Below, one piece after another: positions 4,456 to 15,734 of a DNA stretch of 16,551 nucleotides. Position 1 is the first letter of the stretch. Each line of letters opens with the position of its first letter. Source of the stretch: a virus; UHGV virus genome UHGV-0128496, one strand, 5' to 3'. Below the pieces are notes generated by a model, which was not told the DNA's origin, searched no databases, and saw nothing but the letters and a program-made list of their open reading frames with translations. The translations under genes were made by a program, and so were the position numbers.

Positions 4456-4619
4456 GGCGTTTTACCTTTACGTTCCTGTTCCAGTTGCACCAGAGACTCT
4501 TTTAATGCTGCGAACGTAGCTTCTAGTCTGGTGGCGACTTCGCGCATAAGCGGTGCATGCTTTGGTGGCAATTCAGCAACGGAGGCAAACGCCTCCGCTA
4601 CGAGTTCTTTTACCTTCAT
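4452..4619 (-). CDS. Unannotated small ORF (55 aa) coupled between the HD and wHTH genes
   Basis: Hand translation gives MKVKELVAEAFASVAELPPKHAPLMREVATRLEATFAALKESLVQLEQERKGKTP. It is below the 60-aa cutoff of the ORF track. Its ATG overlaps the HD gene stop (ATGA) and its TGA overlaps the ATG of the next gene. Confidence 0.4.
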   Translation of the reverse strand: MKVKELVAEAFASVAELPPKHAPLMREVATRLEATFAALKESLVQLEQERKGKTP

Positions 4620-5155
4620 GCGGCGCATTGGCGCTGCTCCATCAATTCGTTAAAGCGATTGATGAACATGCCGTATGACTGGCCAGGACGAACTGGATTG
4701 ATAATGAATAAATCCGTTGGGACAACTCCCTCGAGGCATGGCCACACGGAACCTTCGTCAACCTCAAAATCGCGGCGTTCGCTGGCGAGCATCACCAGAT
4801 CGGCATATTTCACAGTTGGGTGTTGTTCCGTCGGTAGGCCGAACTTCTGCCGAATGGCTGCATCCACGCGAGCTTCGATCACCTGGTAATCCGGAAGCAG
4901 GTGCTTAAGCGGGGATGGGATGTCCTGCAGGTAGGCTTCAGCAGCATCATGAAGCAGTGCTTCTAATGCAAACTCCTGCGGAACGAGGTGGCTGGTTAAA
5001 ACGCTATGCTGGCCGACGCTATAAAACTCAGGAAGATGCCCTGCAAAACGGCAGATATGAGACAACGCGGTAGCAATATCCTCGATCACGATATCGTCCT
5101 GTTGGATATCGAGGTAATTAAAATGTTTGCCGGATAATGTCTGAATGTAGCTCAT
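4616..5155 (-). CDS. HD-domain phosphohydrolase (YfbR-like 5'-deoxynucleotidase family)
   Basis: H...HD metal-binding signature (QHSVLTSHL ... LLHDAAEAY). I place the start at the ATG at 5155 (MSYIQTL...), preceded by GGAGAAAA; the track ORF begins at a GTG at 5182 with no SD. Confidence 0.7.
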   Translation of the reverse strand: MSYIQTLSGKHFNYLDIQQDDIVIEDIATALSHICRFAGHLPEFYSVGQHSVLTSHLVPQEFALEALLHDAAEAYLQDIPSPLKHLLPDYQVIEARVDAAIRQKFGLPTEQHPTVKYADLVMLASERRDFEVDEGSVWPCLEGVVPTDLFIINPVRPGQSYGMFINRFNELMEQRQCAA

Positions 5156-5262
5156 GGTTTTCTCCATATTGGCGCGCTGCACCGCGCTATTAAATTAATG
5201 AATTGCTAAATTTAGCGTGCAGCAACCCAACCCATGACATGGGTTAATTACGGTCTGGGGTA

Positions 5263-6180
5263 TTAGGCTGCGGGTTTTTGTGGCTGTTCTTCTTTGTACG
5301 AAAGAAGATCACACATCAGGTTTACTACTTTGCTGAATTGGATTAGATCCGTCCCGGCCTGATGGCGCCATTGAAATGCTTTATCATCTTCATCGTTGAA
5401 TGTTTGGGCTTGGGTATTGATGCGCGAAAAATGGAAATTTTCGGTGAGGATGAACGATACACCGCATCCTGCTAGCTCCATTTTATCAGCGGTAAAGCCG
5501 CTATTAAGGCTATCAACTAGCTCGCTTTGAATTGAGTCGTGTTCAGCTGAGTAGCGAATAACTTCATTTTGATCGGCAAGGCGGGACAGCTGGATATAAT
5601 TGCCGACGGTAAACCCTTCAAAAGCATTGGCCACGCCATTGATATAGTTTTTCAACCGCGTAGTTAAACCGTTCTTAATATCGCTAATGTTGATTGTTTC
5701 TGTTTTAACGGAACCGACAACTTTCACCAGCATAGCCACAGCCATACCGGCAATATTTTTATTGGTCGTATTGACCACTAATAGCTTTTCGTTGGTGCTG
5801 TACAACGCAAGGATCAGCGTTGATTTAACAAATGCCCGTTTACACAGGTCAACGCGGACGCTGTCGATAATTGCTAATCGTTCGATACGTTTGATTTTAC
5901 TCCCGGACATATCTTCGATTCTTTGGATCCGTGCTGCGGCTTCCTTCAAAACAACATGCTGGGGAATGATTTTCTGATCATGGCGGATCACGATGGCATA
6001 CCCACCTGATATTGGGGTGACCAATTCGCCAGTGATCGGGTTTGGCACAAAAGAGGCGCGTGAAAACTCAGTTTCACCAATCTCGGAGTAGGGGAGTTCA
6101 AGCAGATGCCCCTCGATAGCTTCAATGCTAGGTAGTGTGGCGCGGTACACGATTGCGTTACGGAACTTAGGTAATTTCAT
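5263..6180 (-). CDS. rdgC: RdgC-like recombination-associated protein
   Basis: 305-aa ORF whose length and sequence pattern (N-terminal FRNAIVYR, central hydrophobic core, C-terminal acidic tail) match my memory of E. coli RdgC (about 303 aa). AGAGGAAAG RBS 5 nt upstream of the ATG at 6180. Confidence 0.65.
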   Translation of the reverse strand: MKLPKFRNAIVYRATLPSIEAIEGHLLELPYSEIGETEFSRASFVPNPITGELVTPISGGYAIVIRHDQKIIPQHVVLKEAAARIQRIEDMSGSKIKRIERLAIIDSVRVDLCKRAFVKSTLILALYSTNEKLLVVNTTNKNIAGMAVAMLVKVVGSVKTETINISDIKNGLTTRLKNYINGVANAFEGFTVGNYIQLSRLADQNEVIRYSAEHDSIQSELVDSLNSGFTADKMELAGCGVSFILTENFHFSRINTQAQTFNDEDDKAFQWRHQAGTDLIQFSKVVNLMCDLLSYKEEQPQKPAA

Positions 6181-9139: not shown

Positions 9140-9994
9140 ATGAGCACTAAATTAACCGGTTACGTATGGGATGCATGCGCTTCGTCAGGCATGAAGTTAT
9201 CCAGCGTTGCCATCATGGCGCGTCTGGCAGACTTCAGCAGTGATGAAGGGGTTAGCTGGCCTTCCATCGCTACCATCGCGCGCCAGATTGGTGCTGGTGA
9301 GAGCACGGTTCGTACAGCCATATCTCAGCTGGAAAAAGATGGTTGGTTAACCCGCCAGCAGCGCCGTAAAGGCAACCGAAATGCATCGAACGTTTACCAG
9401 CTCAATGTTGCGAAATTGCAGGCTGCTGCCTTTTCTCACCTGTCAGATTCTGACGCATCAAAATCTGATGCCTCAAAAACAGACGCGTCAAAATCTGAGG
9501 CATCAAAAAACGATGAAAAAGGCGGTTTTCACCCGTCAGAATCTGGGGGGGATCCGTCAGTAAATACAACTACTGATCCATCAGTTAAAAAACCTTCTTG
9601 TCCGGTTGCGCCGCAACCAGACCCTGAAGTGATGATCACCGATAACGCCATCCTGGTTCTGAATCATCTGAACCTGGTTAGTGGCTCACGATACCAAAAA
9701 TCAAAAACTTCTCTGGAAAACATCCGTGCTCGTCTGCGTGAAGGTTACACCGTTAGCGACTTACAGCTGGTGATCGACCTTAAGCATGAGCACTGGAACG
9801 GCAATGACGTGCAGTACCAGTACATGCGTCCTGAAACGCTCTTCGGTCCGAAAAAATTTGAAGGTTATCTGCAAAGCGGGATCCGCTGGGACAAGAAGGG
9901 GCGGCCACCGCGTGACAGCTGGGGTGAAAAGAAACATGACCCGATGAAGTTCGGTCCGGTTGATAGCAAGATTCCAGAGGGGTTCAGAGGATGA
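9140..9994 (+). CDS. Replication initiation protein (lambda-O-like; N-terminal winged HTH, conserved phage C-terminal domain)
   Basis: N-terminus VAIMARLADFSSDEGVSWPSIATIARQIGAGESTVRTAISQLEKDGWL is typical of HTH_36-type initiators. A low-complexity linker (DASKS x4) precedes a conserved C-terminal domain (VLNHLNLVSGSRYQ ... LFGPKKFEGYLQ). The position after the cro/cII module matches a replication gene. Confidence 0.7.
   Translation: MSTKLTGYVWDACASSGMKLSSVAIMARLADFSSDEGVSWPSIATIARQIGAGESTVRTAISQLEKDGWLTRQQRRKGNRNASNVYQLNVAKLQAAAFSHLSDSDASKSDASKTDASKSEASKNDEKGGFHPSESGGDPSVNTTTDPSVKKPSCPVAPQPDPEVMITDNAILVLNHLNLVSGSRYQKSKTSLENIRARLREGYTVSDLQLVIDLKHEHWNGNDVQYQYMRPETLFGPKKFEGYLQSGIRWDKKGRPPRDSWGEKKHDPMKFGPVDSKIPEGFRG
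9452..9511 (+). repeat. Four tandem 15-bp iteron-like repeats inside the initiator gene (putative origin)
   Basis: gacgcatcaaaatct / gatgcctcaaaaaca / gacgcgtcaaaatct / gaggcatcaaaaaac, with partial copies on both sides. Each has a near-palindromic GAYGCRTC core and an A-tract. Lambda ori likewise lies as iterons inside the O gene. Confidence 0.45.
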
Positions 9995-11325
9995 TGGAAA
10001 ATAAATACTGCCGTGCACTGGCTGAACTCCGTTCAAAACCAGCACACGAGTTGAAAGAGGTCGGTGATCAATGGCGCACTCCGGATCTGTTGTTTTGGGG
10101 GATCAATGCGATGTTCGGCCCTCTGGTGTTGGACCTTTTTGCCGACGACAGCAACGCGAAGTGCCCAGCATGGTACACGGCTGAAGATAATGCCCTGACG
10201 CAGGATTGGTCAGAGCGGCTGGCAGAACTCGGTGGTGCCGGGTTTGGCAACCCGCCTTACAGCCGCTCTCAGTACCACGACAAGCAGGCCGTTACCGGAA
10301 TGACCCACATCATTAACCACGCTATGGCCATGCGAGAAAAGGGTGGTCGGTACGTTTTTCTCATTAAGTCTGCGACGAGTGAAACGTGGTGGCCGGAAGA
10401 GGCAGATCACGTCACATTCATCCGTGGCCGAATTGGTTTCGATCTTCCTACATGGTTCGTGCCGAAAGACGAAAAGCAGCAGCCCACCAGCGCATTTTTT
10501 GCTGGCGCTATCGTGGTCTTCGACAAAACATGGCGGGGTGAGCGTTTCAGTTACATCAACCGCACCGACCTGGAGGCCAAAGGCCGTGCTGCGATGTCGC
10601 TGGCCCAATTTGCCGTGGGAAGAACGCAAACTGATGCGGCGCCAGAGCTGGACGCTGAGGTAGTGCCGAAGAAATCAGAGGCAGAACTGCCATTAACCCA
10701 AAAAGCCATTCTGGAAACCAGCGGTGTAGAGGCTTGGGCCTGTGTTGTCGCGGCGTTCGGCGAGAAAGACGAGTACACCTTCAGCGAGTCAAAGTTTGGT
10801 CATACCTGGGCTGCCGACTCTCTGGAAAACCCTGAATTTACCAATGTTTCACCGCTGACGATCGACAGAGCGAAAAAGCTGATCAGCGAGAGCATCCTGG
10901 TGGGTGTTAATGCATGGCTGGAAACATTGCCCTTTGATAGCGATGACGTGAAACAAGACATGTCAGAGCGGTTACGCACGGTTGCCGTTGAGTCTGCGAA
11001 AGAATACGGCATTAACCACAGTGAATTCATCGCGACCATGGAAAGCCTGGATAAAGCCAAATGGTCAAATATTCGGGGGATCCGCGCCCATGTCCGTGAG
11101 ACGCAGGAATCAAAGGACAAGGCGTTAAACGAATCGCGCGTTTGGCCTCTTGAGGTTGGACTGGTGTTTAACCAGATTGAAGGGGCTGACGCTCTACCTG
11201 TTTCGCAGCAGAACAAGCTGAAAGCCAATATCAACCAGCTGTGGCTCGAACGTATGCCGACGAGTGAAATTATCACGACCGCTGGTGGTCTCTTCAACAG
11301 CATGCAGGGGGCCGTCAATGCGTGA
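9991..11325 (+). CDS. Phage Dam-family N6-adenine DNA methyltransferase with about 240-aa C-terminal extension
   Basis: N-terminal about 200 aa carry WRTPD and the catalytic FGNPPYS (NPPY) motif of phage Dam-type N6A MTases. Its ATG overlaps the initiator stop (ATGATG). Residues about 205-444 have no motif I recognise. Confidence 0.8.
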   Translation: MMENKYCRALAELRSKPAHELKEVGDQWRTPDLLFWGINAMFGPLVLDLFADDSNAKCPAWYTAEDNALTQDWSERLAELGGAGFGNPPYSRSQYHDKQAVTGMTHIINHAMAMREKGGRYVFLIKSATSETWWPEEADHVTFIRGRIGFDLPTWFVPKDEKQQPTSAFFAGAIVVFDKTWRGERFSYINRTDLEAKGRAAMSLAQFAVGRTQTDAAPELDAEVVPKKSEAELPLTQKAILETSGVEAWACVVAAFGEKDEYTFSESKFGHTWAADSLENPEFTNVSPLTIDRAKKLISESILVGVNAWLETLPFDSDDVKQDMSERLRTVAVESAKEYGINHSEFIATMESLDKAKWSNIRGIRAHVRETQESKDKALNESRVWPLEVGLVFNQIEGADALPVSQQNKLKANINQLWLERMPTSEIITTAGGLFNSMQGAVNA

Positions 11326-13255
11326 AATTATCGTTGATAACTTTGCTGGTGGCGGCGGCGCGAGTACCGGCATTGAACTGGCGATCGGGCGTAGCGTGGA
11401 TATCGCTATCAACCACGACGAAAACGCTATTGCGATGCATAAGACGAATCACCCTGACACGCTGCATTATTGCGAGTCGGTGTTTGACGTTGACCCAAGC
11501 GCAGCCACCAGCGGTAAACCTGTCGGTCTGGCCTGGTTTAGCCCTGACTGCCGCCACTTTTCCAAGGCGAAGGGCGCTAAGCCGGTTAAGAAAGAGATTC
11601 GCGGGCTGGCGTGGATTGTCCTGCGCTGGGCGCTGGCAGTACGTCCCCGCGTCATGATGCTGGAGAACGTCGAAGAGTTTAAGACATGGGGCCCGCTGCT
11701 GGATGAAGAATTACGCCCGGATCCTGAGCGTGCTGGCGAAACATTCGAGGCATTTGTCGGCATGCTGTCGACGGGGATCGCGGCGAATCACCCTGCGCTG
11801 GCTGAGGTTTGTGAATTCCTTGCCATTGAGCCGCACGGCCAGCAGGCGCAACAGCTGATCGCCGGGCTTGGTTATGAGGTTGATTATCGGGAGCTGCGCG
11901 CATGTGACTACGGCGCGCCGACGATCAGAAAGCGTTTCTTCATGGTCATGCGCTGTGACGGCCGCAAGATTCATTGGCCTGAAGCGACTCATGGGGATCC
12001 AAAATCACTGGAAGTACAAAGCGGCAAGCTGGCGCCATGGCGTACCGCGGCGGAGTGCATTGACTGGAATATCCCGGCCCGGTCCATCTTCGACCGCAAA
12101 AAGCCGCTGGCGGAAAATACGCTCAAACGTATCGCGCGCGGCATCCAGCGCTTTGTTATCGAAAGCGCATCACCTTTCATCGTGAAGTGTAACCACACCA
12201 CGACGAAAGGAGGTTATGACTGTTTCCGCGGGCAATCGTTGTTAGAGCCATTGCAGACCATCACTAAAAAGCATGGCTACGCACTGGCGGTACCGCATCT
12301 TACTAAATTCCGCACCGGGGCCACCGGGCAGCCAGTGACCGAGCCGGTACCAACTGTCACCGCTGGTACGTCGGCGCGCCCGGGCGGGAATGGGCATGCG
12401 CTTGGCGTAGTTGAGGCCGCCCTGACACCGTTCCTGGCTGGCAATGGCGGCAGTGAGTACCAGGCAAAGCCGCGCCCGCTGGATAAACCCGCTCATACAA
12501 TCCTCAAGCAGTCCCGCGCGTGCGTGGTTGCGCCGGTCATCGCCCGCCAGTTTGGAGCCAGTGTTGGGCACAGGGCTGACGAACCGAGTGCGACGATTAC
12601 TGCAGGTGGTGGCGGTAAGTCGCAGCTGGTAACTCCAACACTGATCCAGATGGGGTACGGCGAACGCCCAGGGCAAGAACCGCGTGTTCTTCAACTGAAT
12701 AACCCGCTCGGCACGGTCACTGCTGGTGGTAATAAGTTTGCAACGGTGAGCGCGTTCCTGGCGAAGCACTATGGTGGGAATTACACGGGGCCGGGTGTTG
12801 GTATGGATGAGCCTGCCCACTCAGTCACTACTGTTGATCACCACGCGGTAGTTGCGTCGCACCTGGTGAAGCTGCGCGGAACCTGCCGCGACGGTCAGAC
12901 CATGGATACACCTATGCCGACGATTACCGCTGGTGGCCAGCACGTTGGCGAGGTCCGGACATTCCTCGAAACCTACTGCGGTGATAGCGAGGATGAATGG
13001 CTGGTGACGATCGAGGGGGTTAAGTACCAGATCGTCGATATCGGAATGCGCATGCTGCAACCGCATGAGCTTTATAAGGCGCAGGGCTTCCCTGACGGCT
13101 ACGTTATCGATCAGGACTATCGCGGCAATCGTTACGCCAAAGACAAGCAGGTAGCGCGCTGTGGTAACGCAGTACCGCCGCCGTTCGCTCGTGCGCTGGT
13201 AGAAGCAAATCTTCCTGAATTATGTGCAAATCAAAAGGCGGGTGCAGCCGCCTGA
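11318..13255 (+). CDS. DNA cytosine-5 methyltransferase (large, repeat-containing variable region)
   Basis: Motif I FAGGGGAS, an ENV motif (MLENVEEF) and C-terminal CGNAVPPP; the Cys motif reads SPDCRHFS rather than canonical PCQ. Start taken at the ATG at 11318 (MREIIVDNFAGGGG), overlapping the Dam stop; the track ORF extends upstream in the same frame. The region between the catalytic and C-terminal motifs holds about five P-x-x-T-[VI]-T-A-G-G repeats. Confidence 0.8.
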   Translation: MREIIVDNFAGGGGASTGIELAIGRSVDIAINHDENAIAMHKTNHPDTLHYCESVFDVDPSAATSGKPVGLAWFSPDCRHFSKAKGAKPVKKEIRGLAWIVLRWALAVRPRVMMLENVEEFKTWGPLLDEELRPDPERAGETFEAFVGMLSTGIAANHPALAEVCEFLAIEPHGQQAQQLIAGLGYEVDYRELRACDYGAPTIRKRFFMVMRCDGRKIHWPEATHGDPKSLEVQSGKLAPWRTAAECIDWNIPARSIFDRKKPLAENTLKRIARGIQRFVIESASPFIVKCNHTTTKGGYDCFRGQSLLEPLQTITKKHGYALAVPHLTKFRTGATGQPVTEPVPTVTAGTSARPGGNGHALGVVEAALTPFLAGNGGSEYQAKPRPLDKPAHTILKQSRACVVAPVIARQFGASVGHRADEPSATITAGGGGKSQLVTPTLIQMGYGERPGQEPRVLQLNNPLGTVTAGGNKFATVSAFLAKHYGGNYTGPGVGMDEPAHSVTTVDHHAVVASHLVKLRGTCRDGQTMDTPMPTITAGGQHVGEVRTFLETYCGDSEDEWLVTIEGVKYQIVDIGMRMLQPHELYKAQGFPDGYVIDQDYRGNRYAKDKQVARCGNAVPPPFARALVEANLPELCANQKAGAAA

Positions 13256-13269
13256 TATGGAGAAATAGC

Positions 13270-13962
13270 ATGAATCAGTTAACCGCTAAGGGTGTTGTGA
13301 CAATGTCCAGCCGTGAAATTGCCAGGCTGGTGCAGAGCAAACATGGTGATGTGAAGCGCTCAGCTGAGCGCCTTGCATCTGCTGGTATTTTAACCGCGCC
13401 GTTGGCGCACACCCCCTACACACACCCGCAAAACGGGCAAACCTACGAGGAGTATTGGTTTAACAAACGTGATTCTCTGGTGATCGTCGCCAGGCTGTCG
13501 CCAGAATTTACCGCCGCTGTTGTCGATCGCTGGCAAGAGCTGGAGAACAGCCAGGCCGTAAGTGTCCCGCAAACATTGCCGGAGGCATTACGTCTCGCCG
13601 CGGATCTGGCCGAGCAGAAAGAACAACTCAGCCAGCAGTTAGCCGCTGCCGCGCCGAAAGTTGAGTTTGTCGATCGATATTGTACTGCCAAAGGCTCAAT
13701 GTCTTTCCGCCAGGTGGCAAAGCTGTTGCAGGCCAAAGAGACCGATTTCCGCTTGTTCCTCATTGAGAGCGGCATTTTGTACCGGCTCAGTGGAGTGCTG
13801 ACACCTCGGCACCAGCACATTGCTGCCGGGCGGTTTGAAGTGAAAACTGGCACTACGAGCGAAACAAACTACGCCTTTAGCCAGGCACGTTTTACACCCA
13901 AAGGCATCGAGTGGATCGGCGGCCTGTGGACGGCACACATCGCTAAGGGGCATGCCGCGTGA
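13270..13962 (+). CDS. Rha-family regulator / antirepressor (Rha N-terminal domain plus KilA-C/ANT-like C-terminus)
   Basis: N-terminus MSSREIARLVQSKHGDVKRSAERL resembles the Rha domain; C-terminal EALRLAADLAEQKEQL ... KVEFVDRY resembles ANT/KilA-C. GGAGAAA RBS 5 nt before the ATG at 13270. Confidence 0.65.
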   Translation: MNQLTAKGVVTMSSREIARLVQSKHGDVKRSAERLASAGILTAPLAHTPYTHPQNGQTYEEYWFNKRDSLVIVARLSPEFTAAVVDRWQELENSQAVSVPQTLPEALRLAADLAEQKEQLSQQLAAAAPKVEFVDRYCTAKGSMSFRQVAKLLQAKETDFRLFLIESGILYRLSGVLTPRHQHIAAGRFEVKTGTTSETNYAFSQARFTPKGIEWIGGLWTAHIAKGHAA

Positions 13963-15020
13963 GAGGACTGTTTACAGCCGAGACTGTTCCGCGCCTTGGG
14001 CTTGTGCTGTTAAAGCCGGGTAGCGAACTGATGTCTTTGTTTCAACAGGGGCGTGTGCTGGTGGAGCCTCAGCCAAAAAGCATGGCTGGGCTTCCGTCGG
14101 GGCTCGTCCCTGATGCCCGGCAGCCGCTGGCAGAAGATAAGTCCCTCGAGGAATTCTTCACCGACGAGAGAGTTATCCGTGCAGCAGGCGGTTTGTCCGG
14201 GTTGGAATCCTGGCTAGAGCGTAACGTGAAGGAATGCCAGTACCCGCACACTAATTATCACCATCATGAGCTGGTAACGATGCGACATCCCCCTGGATCA
14301 ATGTTGCTCTGTTGGCATTGCGATAACCAGCTGCGCGAGCAAACCACCGCGGCGCTGGCAGAACTGGCCCGGCGTAATCTCATTAACTGGCTGATCAGTT
14401 CTATCCTGTCTTCGCTTGGCTACAACAACGAGCGTGAACTATCCCTCGGTGAATTGTGCTGGTGGGCCGTTTACTCAGGCATTGCTGATGCAATCACGGA
14501 AAGGATGGCCCAGCATGCGCTTCGCTTACCGGATGAGCCGTTTTTATCCGTATATCGCGAAAGTGACATTGTGCCGATGCCACCGACAAAAAACATTTTG
14601 CAGAAGAAGGTCACCCCTGCGGTCACGGCTGCGCATTTAAAGCATGGAACAAATCAGGAAGTGGCCTATGACCAGCCACAGGTTCTGGCTCTGCATGCGG
14701 ATCCTGAATCCCCTGAATCATTCATGTTGCGCCCAAAACACCGCAGGTGGGTGAATGAGGACTATACCCGGTGGGCTAAAACCCAGCCCTGTGAAGGTTG
14801 CCGGCGGCCAGCGGATGATCCACACCATGTCATTGGTCACGGCATGGGCGGTACCGCCACTAAAGCCCACGATTTGTTCGTGATCCCTCTGTGCAGAGAG
14901 TGTCACGACAAATTACATGCTGATGTTGCAGCGTTCGAGAAAAAACACGGTACCCAGCTGGAGCTGCTATTCCGATTTATGAATCGAGCGCTGGCGATCG
15001 GCGTAATAACAAAAGCGTAA
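13959..15020 (+). CDS. DUF968-like prophage protein with C-terminal HNH-like zinc motif
   Basis: GTG start overlapping the Rha stop (GTGA), with AAGGGG 8 nt upstream. C-terminus PCEGCRRPADDPHHVIGHGMGGTATKAHDLFVIPLCRECHDKLH has an HNH-like arrangement (CxxC ... HH ... CxxCH). I recall DUF968 (YdfU-like) proteins sitting next to Q in Qin-like prophages. Confidence 0.5.
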   Translation: MRGLFTAETVPRLGLVLLKPGSELMSLFQQGRVLVEPQPKSMAGLPSGLVPDARQPLAEDKSLEEFFTDERVIRAAGGLSGLESWLERNVKECQYPHTNYHHHELVTMRHPPGSMLLCWHCDNQLREQTTAALAELARRNLINWLISSILSSLGYNNERELSLGELCWWAVYSGIADAITERMAQHALRLPDEPFLSVYRESDIVPMPPTKNILQKKVTPAVTAAHLKHGTNQEVAYDQPQVLALHADPESPESFMLRPKHRRWVNEDYTRWAKTQPCEGCRRPADDPHHVIGHGMGGTATKAHDLFVIPLCRECHDKLHADVAAFEKKHGTQLELLFRFMNRALAIGVITKA

Positions 15021-15041
15021 TTGTATGGAGCGCTGAGCATA

Positions 15042-15734
15042 ATGAATTTACAAGAACTGGAATATACGCGGATTGAACTGCGCCGCGCGCTGGCGGATTT
15101 ATCAGGATCGACAAAAGGACAGCTGCAGGCGTTCAGTGAGCATCCACCAGCAGATAAGAATAAATACCCCCGGCACCATCCTGAAATCGTCATGGAGGGT
15201 GGGGAAGGTTGTGGGTCAAAGGTTGTAACAACGCTGGCCACTCCATTTTATGTTCTTGAGACAAGGAGCCGTCGTCGACCTTTGCCGCCTATTAAAGATA
15301 CGGAGTTCGCTTGTTCAGCATGGCGTCGTTCGGTCAATGGTCTGGGTGAGCATTTGCAGGCATGGGTGCGGTACTGCTATGGGTATGACCTTACTTTCCG
15401 GTACCAGACATTGATGTGCCAGCACGTGTGGGAACAGTTTCAGCGTCAGCATAGCGGCAAAAAAATACAGGGCCGCGTCACTAAAAAACTGGTAGGGCTT
15501 GTCTGGCTGGCGGCGCAAGAAGTTGCTGCCTCGCGTAATAACGATACCTATCAGGAGTATGCTGGTGCAGCTCTGGCGCGCATGGTCAGCGTTGAGCGTT
15601 CCACCTGGCTCAGAGTGTATTCAGGCCACTGGGCGGCTTTCAAAGCGTCGTTTGCTGAAATGGATAGCCAGGCACTAAGCGAAATTTTGTCACGGTACGA
15701 AGAGTACCAAGAACTGAAAGTGGCGGAAATGTGA
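15042..15734 (+). CDS. Late-gene antitermination protein Q-like
   Basis: Last gene of the early-right operon, immediately upstream of a promoter-plus-terminator pair. Size and sequence fit my recollection of enterobacterial Q-like proteins. Start placed at the ATG at 15042 (MNLQELEY...). Confidence 0.5.
   Translation: MNLQELEYTRIELRRALADLSGSTKGQLQAFSEHPPADKNKYPRHHPEIVMEGGEGCGSKVVTTLATPFYVLETRSRRRPLPPIKDTEFACSAWRRSVNGLGEHLQAWVRYCYGYDLTFRYQTLMCQHVWEQFQRQHSGKKIQGRVTKKLVGLVWLAAQEVAASRNNDTYQEYAGAALARMVSVERSTWLRVYSGHWAAFKASFAEMDSQALSEILSRYEEYQELKVAEM

Follow-up and report, generated by a model that had tools for sequence, protein, structure and literature searches.

A rare helical module inserted between the catalytic core and the tail of a temperate-phage Dam methyltransferase

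The window analysed here is the whole 16,551-nucleotide stretch of the virus genome UHGV-0128496, the early region of a lambdoid temperate phage, and its subject is the Dam-type N6-adenine methyltransferase gene at 9991-11325 on the plus strand (ATG start, 444 residues plus stop in the open reading frame (ORF) listing). We found that the region of this protein beyond its Dam core consists of two modules, M and T, joined by flexible linkers like beads on a string, with M inserted in the linker between Dam and T (hereafter Dam-M-T). While T is the tail normally seen in a large subfamily of Dam enzymes from enterobacterial prophages, M is rare, is found elsewhere on ParB-like proteins, and is a genuine folded domain of a new family that is absent from Pfam, NCBIfam, PHROGs and PADLOC. 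The protein thus pairs a known enzyme family with a new, rare, mobile accessory domain, and there is as yet no evidence for a new mechanism. The gene and its parts are as follows.

9991-11325, plus strand: complete Dam-M-T gene, from the ORF listing; intact in Phi06_2987, Eeyore, Flotzy, 13 E. coli genomes and IMG/VR loci
9991-10605, plus strand: Dam-type N6-adenine methyltransferase domain, residues 1-205 (PF05869, TIGR01712), with NPPY at residues 87-90 (nucleotides 10249-10260)
10606-10683, plus strand: linker 1, residues 206-231, acidic, rich in Pro and Ala, predicted disordered
10684-11118, plus strand: module M, residues 232-376 (145 residues), a rarely found, helical accessory domain; core motif SGVEAWACVVAAFGEKDEYTFSESKFGHTWAADS, C-terminal motif EFI...W.N.R..R
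11131-11322, plus strand: tail T, a three-helix module, residues 381-444 (64 residues), matched by phrog_16025, the C-terminal part of phrog_111 and PADLOC PDLC03332

Architecture of the window Dam protein

The catalytic core was matched by the Pfam Dam family PF05869 over residues 19-199 (148.5 bits; cutoff 28.1) and by the equivalog model TIGR01712 over residues 16-197 (204.9 bits; cutoff 97.05), in agreement with the first-pass annotation of the window, which had placed the end of the Dam region near residue 200. Motif IV, (D/N)PP(Y/F), is intact as NPPY, and was present in the sequences of our alignment A1 that cover this region. On sequence grounds the protein belongs firmly to the PF05869/TIGR01712 phage Dam family and, within it, to the Dam-T subfamily. 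Characterised members of the family methylate GATC, producing N6-methyladenine (m6A), and the PF05869 enzymes are minimal and are not known to have a discrete target-recognition domain (TRD). M.EcoGII, a prophage adenine methyltransferase of a different class (beta), is unrelated.

The Dam genes of Eeyore (locus L001, 5001-6335), Flotzy and ST64B (RefSeq sb44; locus L004, 3299-4192) are labelled 'phosphoadenosine phosphosulfate reductase'. A fusion of such a reductase (PAPS reductase) to Dam was considered and rejected, as phrog_33262, the family of PAPS-reductase-Dam fusions from which the label comes, matched only at positions 283-490 of 495, its Dam part, and no PAPS_reduct Pfam match, and so no N-terminal PAPS-reductase domain, was found in the window Dam protein. 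Since only the Dam part was matched, we regard the label as annotation carry-over; it is wrong, and the correct name is phage Dam methyltransferase.

The remainder of the protein had been described in the first-pass annotation as a single 240-residue C-terminal domain, acidic and helical and without an assignable motif. Its character was borne out (residues 205-444 have an isoelectric point (pI) of 4.76 and a net charge of -13, are all-helical in an AlphaFold2 model and have no match in Pfam or NCBIfam), but its unity was not. When residues 205-444 were searched against phage genomes with tblastn, the matches split into two sets: residues ~227-371 matched only the C-terminal part of the ParB-like gp48 of Pantoea phage AH07 (41% identity), and residues 382-444 matched the ends of shorter Dam proteins from ST64B (Sb44), phiNP, 118970_sal3 and Klebsiella phages. 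A homologue search with the C-terminal region returned 615 relatives, and the great majority of those listed were proteins of 291-299 residues from Enterobacter, Citrobacter and E. coli prophages, named "phage N-6-adenine-methyltransferase", to which only the final ~64 residues of the query were common. The order in alignment A1 is the Dam core (residues 1-205), a linker rich in Pro, Ala and acidic residues, M (232-376, in long forms only) and T (381-444). The AlphaFold2 model is consistent with this layout: the predicted local distance difference test score (pLDDT) is below 50 at model residues 1-32, in linker 1, and confidence dips a second time between M and T.

Hundreds of Dam-T proteins of 291-299 residues carry T, and the subfamily is typified by a length of ~295 residues. 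In the window protein T bears the motif ESR[IV]WPLEV...NKLKANINQLWLER... after a flexible linker, is 82-98% identical to the tails of the short forms, and closes the protein with ...IITTAGGLFNSMQGAVNA (an ending also given as ...GGLFNSMQGAVNA). Residues 383-437 are matched by phrog_16025, and PDLC03332 (297 positions) matches the window protein in two stretches; together with PHROG 111 these models describe Dam plus T, and M is in none of them. The suggestion that the extension might prove to be a conserved part of canonical phage Dam enzymes with a known structural role therefore holds in part: T is a common conserved tail, but one without a known structural role, and only the 145-residue M is unusual.

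Fold, conservation and distribution of module M

Domain-level profile searches, structure prediction and fold searches, as the first-pass annotation had proposed, yielded a confident all-helical M (pLDDT ~90) and no known fold or family. Modelled alone with AlphaFold2, M formed nine helices and a two-residue beta bridge (pLDDT 89.8; predicted template modelling score 0.71). Searches of Pfam, NCBIfam, PHROG and PADLOC, both with the C-terminal region and with M alone, returned no match to M, and only T was matched (PHROG 111, PHROG 16025 and PDLC03332). Foldseek gave no match in BFVD at E ≤0.001, sequence searches of the PDB with the protein and with the M profile were at chance level (E ≥0.035), and the only fold resemblance was to small interaction bundles. 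Two possible origins close at hand found no support in hhalign, in which the M profile had no relationship to the upstream O-like initiator, as a DnaD/Phg_2220_C-like domain would, nor to T, as a duplicate of T would. Literature searches found no description of the C-terminal extension.

We then compared the E. coli-type lineage with the Citrobacter/Enterobacter-type lineage. The Dam core is 88% identical between them, with a ratio of nonsynonymous to synonymous substitution rates (dN/dS) of ~0.03; M is 67% identical (dN/dS ~0.14); and the linker, which corresponds in the alignment to the short Pro/Ala linker that Dam-T proteins have, is 41% identical (dN/dS ~0.25), all three ratios being approximate as dS is near saturation. 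These values point to purifying selection on M. Invariant or near-invariant positions fall in a helix, F-S-E-S-K-F-x-H-T-W-A-A-D-S, and in the C-terminal EFI...W-N-x-R-x-x-R, and the invariant polar residues are S, K, H, W, D, R, N, R and R. M is acidic in all homologues examined (12 of 12; pI 4.4-6.0; 15-19% acidic residues), with a pI of ~4.8 in the window.

M is found far less often than its carrier enzyme. While 489 records of the phage collection contain a homologue of the Dam domain, only three, Phi06_2987, Eeyore and Flotzy, additionally contain M, each in an intact Dam-M-T ORF; the window gene is 100% identical across its length to that of Escherichia phage Phi06_2987 and ~98% identical to those of Eeyore and Flotzy. 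The long, M-bearing form is present in 13 of 5,426 complete E. coli genomes, and more than 70 IMG/VR contigs with an intact Dam-M-T ORF fall into two lineages that are only 66-70% identical in M. When 1.84 billion cluster representatives were searched exhaustively with an HMMER profile, M was recovered in only 24 proteins, a few of them short representatives that may be fragments, and a word-indexed homologue search with M alone recovered three fragments only.

These proteins carry M in several architectures. Besides Dam-M-T, there is Dam-M without T (P0016, 415 residues, and the Pantoea dispersa locus L093), and P0134 and P0135 have Dam, an acidic linker, an M-like module and further helical repeats. 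In AH07 gp48 and the Pantoea/Erwinia prophage proteins P0122, P0124, P0125 and P0127, M (36-43% identity) is instead C-terminal to an N-terminal ParB-like domain with DG(H/Q)HRY and a ParB helix-turn-helix (HTH) domain. This group occupies an equivalent place in the early operon, after an HTH_36/Phg_2220_C-type initiator and a PerC-like gene, but has no methyltransferase domain and no T, and some of its members adjoin a DpdA-like gene. ParB-like proteins without M also occur (L090, L091), and these have only a short tail there.

The slot after the initiator is filled by four grades of Dam protein: bare Dam (217-237 residues), Dam-T (~295), Dam-M (415; P0016) and Dam-M-T. Bare phage Dam proteins of the T1/HP1/VT2 type, such as those of Escherichia phage SKA5 (217 residues) and Yersinia phage YeP2 (237 residues), have the same NPPY catalytic domain and lie in the same slot downstream of the replication initiator, but unlike the window protein end shortly after the catalytic domain, with neither M nor T. 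As bare Dam proteins fill the same slot, M and T are accessories. The Dam-T proteins (Sb44 of Salmonella phage ST64B, the methyltransferase of Citrobacter phage phiNP, PDLC03332, PHROG 111) have the core, the Pro/Ala-rich linker and the tail in common with the window protein but not the 145-residue M, which the window protein has within the linker. Together, these comparisons suggest that M is independently mobile and was placed into the Dam-T linker by recombination.

Several entries are broken or rearranged. At loci L048 (4086-4720) and L078 (5070-5704), both from IMG/VR sample 2775507004, the N-terminal half of M is partly duplicated in tandem with a change of frame; in P0010 (405 residues) a deletion has fused Dam-M to the C-terminal end of the C5-methyltransferase; and in P0014 the reading frame continues past T into the C5-methyltransferase. 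Assembly errors or prophage decay are the probable causes.

Possible roles of M

M is attached to two unrelated DNA-acting proteins, is acidic, carries a conserved polar patch and resembles interaction bundles, and from this combination we infer that it is an adaptor. The account that we tentatively favour is of an orphan m6A methyltransferase that protects the phage's own DNA and bears adaptor modules without catalytic function, of which M is one. Dam would share a transcript with the replication initiator of the early-right operon and be translationally coupled to it, so that the enzyme, made as replication begins, would methylate the phage genome and protect it against restriction when a new host is entered. 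Disordered linkers would tether the two non-catalytic helical modules to the catalytic core (residues 1-205). M itself would act by protein-protein docking, by self-association, or by contact with a specific (anionic) ligand through its invariant Lys, His and Arg residues, and might dock on the phage replication or DNA-modification machinery, thereby localising or regulating the DNA-acting enzyme that carries it.

Several points weigh against this account. No partner or ligand of M was identified, and we infer the methylation activity and its specificity (GATC, on the assumption that it follows the family), the early expression, and the part of M as an adaptor with its partner. The alignment behind the M model is shallow (12 sequences), so that the confident model rests on few sequences. 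Furthermore, the invariant residues (S/K/H/D and R/N/R/R) might just as well make up a small active site or a pocket for nucleotide or phosphate. A second enzymatic domain had been one proposal of the first-pass annotation; M matched no known enzyme family or catalytic fold by sequence or structure and the proposal gained no positive support and we think it improbable, yet the conserved polar residues may leave room for it.

A more specific version of the adaptor account is possible, though we consider it unlikely: M would represent an undescribed family of docking or sensor modules for phage DNA-modification machinery, through which Dam or a DpdB-like ParB protein would be tied to one shared partner, perhaps on the phage genome as it replicates. 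That partner might be the HTH_36/Phg_2220_C initiator complex or a component of the host replisome, and the candidate site is the invariant S-K-H-D together with R/N/R/R.

Phage orphan methyltransferases are usually viewed as single-function restriction-evasion enzymes. The graded series of Dam, Dam-T, Dam-M and Dam-M-T in one slot suggests that interchangeable accessory modules could govern the place, the time or the partners of the enzyme's action, and the presence of M on ParB-like proteins that sometimes lie beside a DpdA-like gene (7-deazaguanine pathway) raises the prospect that it is a handle common to DNA-modification systems. The identity of its partner could reveal how phages couple DNA modification to replication.

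Rather less probable than the adaptor account as a whole is that M confers specificity, by binding nucleic acid or a ligand (DNA, a DNA structure or modification, or a nucleotide) and changing the site or the timing of action of the TRD-poor Dam core or the ParB-like protein. The two proteins to which M is fused both work on DNA, the PF05869 enzymes are not known to have a discrete TRD of their own, M-bearing genes sit among DpdA-like, MT-A70-like and C5-methyltransferase genes, and residues R100, N133, R135, R138, K41 and H44 (A5 numbering) show little or no variation in an otherwise acidic domain. A DNA-targeting domain had also been entertained in the first-pass annotation; M matched no HTH or other DNA-binding family and is consistently acidic, and this proposal, too, gained no positive support.

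The first-pass annotation had further raised an anti-restriction module, either DNA mimic or inhibitor, and we consider it improbable that M is an anti-defence module (a restriction or defence inhibitor, a decoy or a DNA mimic) delivered early by fusion to DNA-modification proteins. M is acidic, helical, rare, mobile and encoded in an early operon, and it has diverged more quickly than the Dam core (67% versus 88% identity), all of which is typical of counter-defence genes; T7 Ocr and ArdA are likewise acidic, largely helical, early-expressed phage or plasmid proteins. However, M is much less acidic than these mimics (~18% acidic residues in the window and 15-19% among homologues, with a pI of ~4.8, well short of Ocr/ArdA-type values), and neither an Ocr/ArdA-like fold nor another known anti-restriction structure was matched in the PDB or BFVD. 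M was moreover recovered almost only as a C-terminal fusion, apart from a few short representatives that may be fragments, and a dN/dS of 0.14 is that of ordinary purifying selection rather than of an arms race.

It is similarly doubtful that M is a self-association domain, which would replace the C-terminal dimerisation domain of ParB and make Dam-M-T multivalent, a reading that overlaps the adaptor account. In canonical ParB the dimerisation domain is C-terminal, after the N-terminal and HTH domains, and M, a helical bundle in the model, follows ParB N-terminal and HTH domains in just this position. Family and fold searches nevertheless detected no similarity to ParB C-terminal domains, and the ParB-like proteins without M (L090, L091) end in only a short tail.

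Finally, an artefact, whether a frameshift fusion of two genes, as the first-pass annotation had allowed, or a decaying pseudogene, is scarcely credible in spite of the rearranged entries P0010, P0014, L048 and L078, given the identical intact ORF in 13 finished E. coli genomes, its presence in the isolated phages Eeyore and Flotzy (with Phi06_2987, three phage records) and on more than 70 IMG/VR contigs, and the purifying selection on M.

The early-right operon and other features of the window

The genes of the window include an integrase, an exonuclease-like gene, RdgC, a CI-type repressor, a CII-like gene, an O-like initiator, two methyltransferases, Ant, DUF968 and Q. The neighbours that bear on the Dam gene are as follows.

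9140-9994, plus strand: replication initiator (HTH_36 plus Phg_2220_C; Pfam and PHROG matches), its stop overlapping the Dam start by 4 nt (ATGA)
11306-11325, plus strand: coupling junction, read directly from the sequence, with AGGGGG at 11306-11311, the C5-methyltransferase ATG at 11318-11320 and the Dam stop TGA at 11323-11325
11318-13255, plus strand: C5-cytosine DNA methyltransferase, 645 residues (PF00145), present in only some Dam-M-T loci

The ORFs of the early-right chain (9140-15734) are closely packed: the O-like initiator overlaps Dam by 4 nt, Dam overlaps the C5-methyltransferase by 8 nt, the C5-methyltransferase overlaps Ant by 34 nt, Ant overlaps DUF968 by 4 nt, and DUF968 and Q abut. 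The 8-nt overlap is as the first-pass annotation had reported. The AGGGGG looks like a Shine-Dalgarno site, and the C5-methyltransferase begins MREIIVDNFAGGGG; the same start and overlap are annotated in Eeyore and phiNP. In the gene annotation of the window, no helicase or helicase-loader gene lies beside the HTH_36/Phg_2220_C initiator. No restriction endonuclease was seen among the genes neighbouring Dam, and the PADLOC matches were to methyltransferase models only.

Our survey of genomic context covered 80 loci from IMG/VR, 9 from genomes and 2 metagenome contigs. In nearly all of them an HTH_36/Phg_2220_C initiator lay a few genes upstream of the gene with M, sometimes with a PerC/YfdN-like or other small ORF in between; in the window's lineage the initiator is directly upstream of Dam-M-T, and in the blast maps of L074, L089 and L093 no initiator match was present. 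The initiators are 49-100% identical among phages with nearly identical Dam-M-T, so the two do not co-vary tightly.

Downstream of Dam-M-T the gene varies, and may be a C5-methyltransferase (8-nt overlap), RusA (4-nt overlap), Ant or a LexA-like gene. Because many loci have no C5 gene, obligatory coupling of T or M to the C5-methyltransferase was rejected. Among the Dam-T phages, phiNP has the same 8-nt Dam/C5-methyltransferase overlap as the window, whereas ST64B has RusA rather than the C5-methyltransferase downstream of Sb44, so T is not dedicated to this enzyme. The C5-methyltransferase is thus an optional downstream cassette. Residues 343-540 of this protein form a long variable region with five TRD-like P-x(2-3)-[ST]-[VI]-T-[AT] motifs (at 343, 423, 463, 499 and 532), which by analogy with the multispecific Bacillus phage methyltransferases may be several tandem target-recognition domains.

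Across phages the slot is a hotspot for DNA-modification genes, including Dam, C5-methyltransferase, MT-A70-like methyltransferase and DpdA-like genes. The ParB-like-M genes sometimes adjoin a DpdA-like gene, as in L002 (3155-5229, corresponding to AH07 gp48-gp49); in L088 (4812-7665) an MT-A70-like (DPPW) methyltransferase gene lies between the two, and in L093 (3326-5486) a DpdA-like gene immediately precedes the Dam-M gene. Obligatory coupling of M to DpdA was rejected, since a DpdA-like neighbour was found only in AH07, L088 and L093. The DpdA-like protein had no match in Pfam or PADLOC. The DG(H/Q)HRY of the ParB-like-M proteins is reminiscent of the DGQHR ParB-like domain of DndB/DpdB, and these proteins may be phage analogues of DpdB.

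GATC occurs in the window about as often as expected by chance (71 observed; 65 expected), and CCWGG is likewise at its expected frequency. Against mononucleotide shuffles, the only reference used, there is a strong excess of GCGC (108 observed; 67 expected) and of GCNGC (129 observed; 68 expected), which may reflect codon or dinucleotide bias. On the minus strand, the early-left genes at 1696-2466, 5263-6180 and 4616-5182 encode Rv2179c-like 3'-5' exoribonuclease-domain and RdgC-like proteins, along with a weak match to YfbR-like 5'-deoxynucleotidase.

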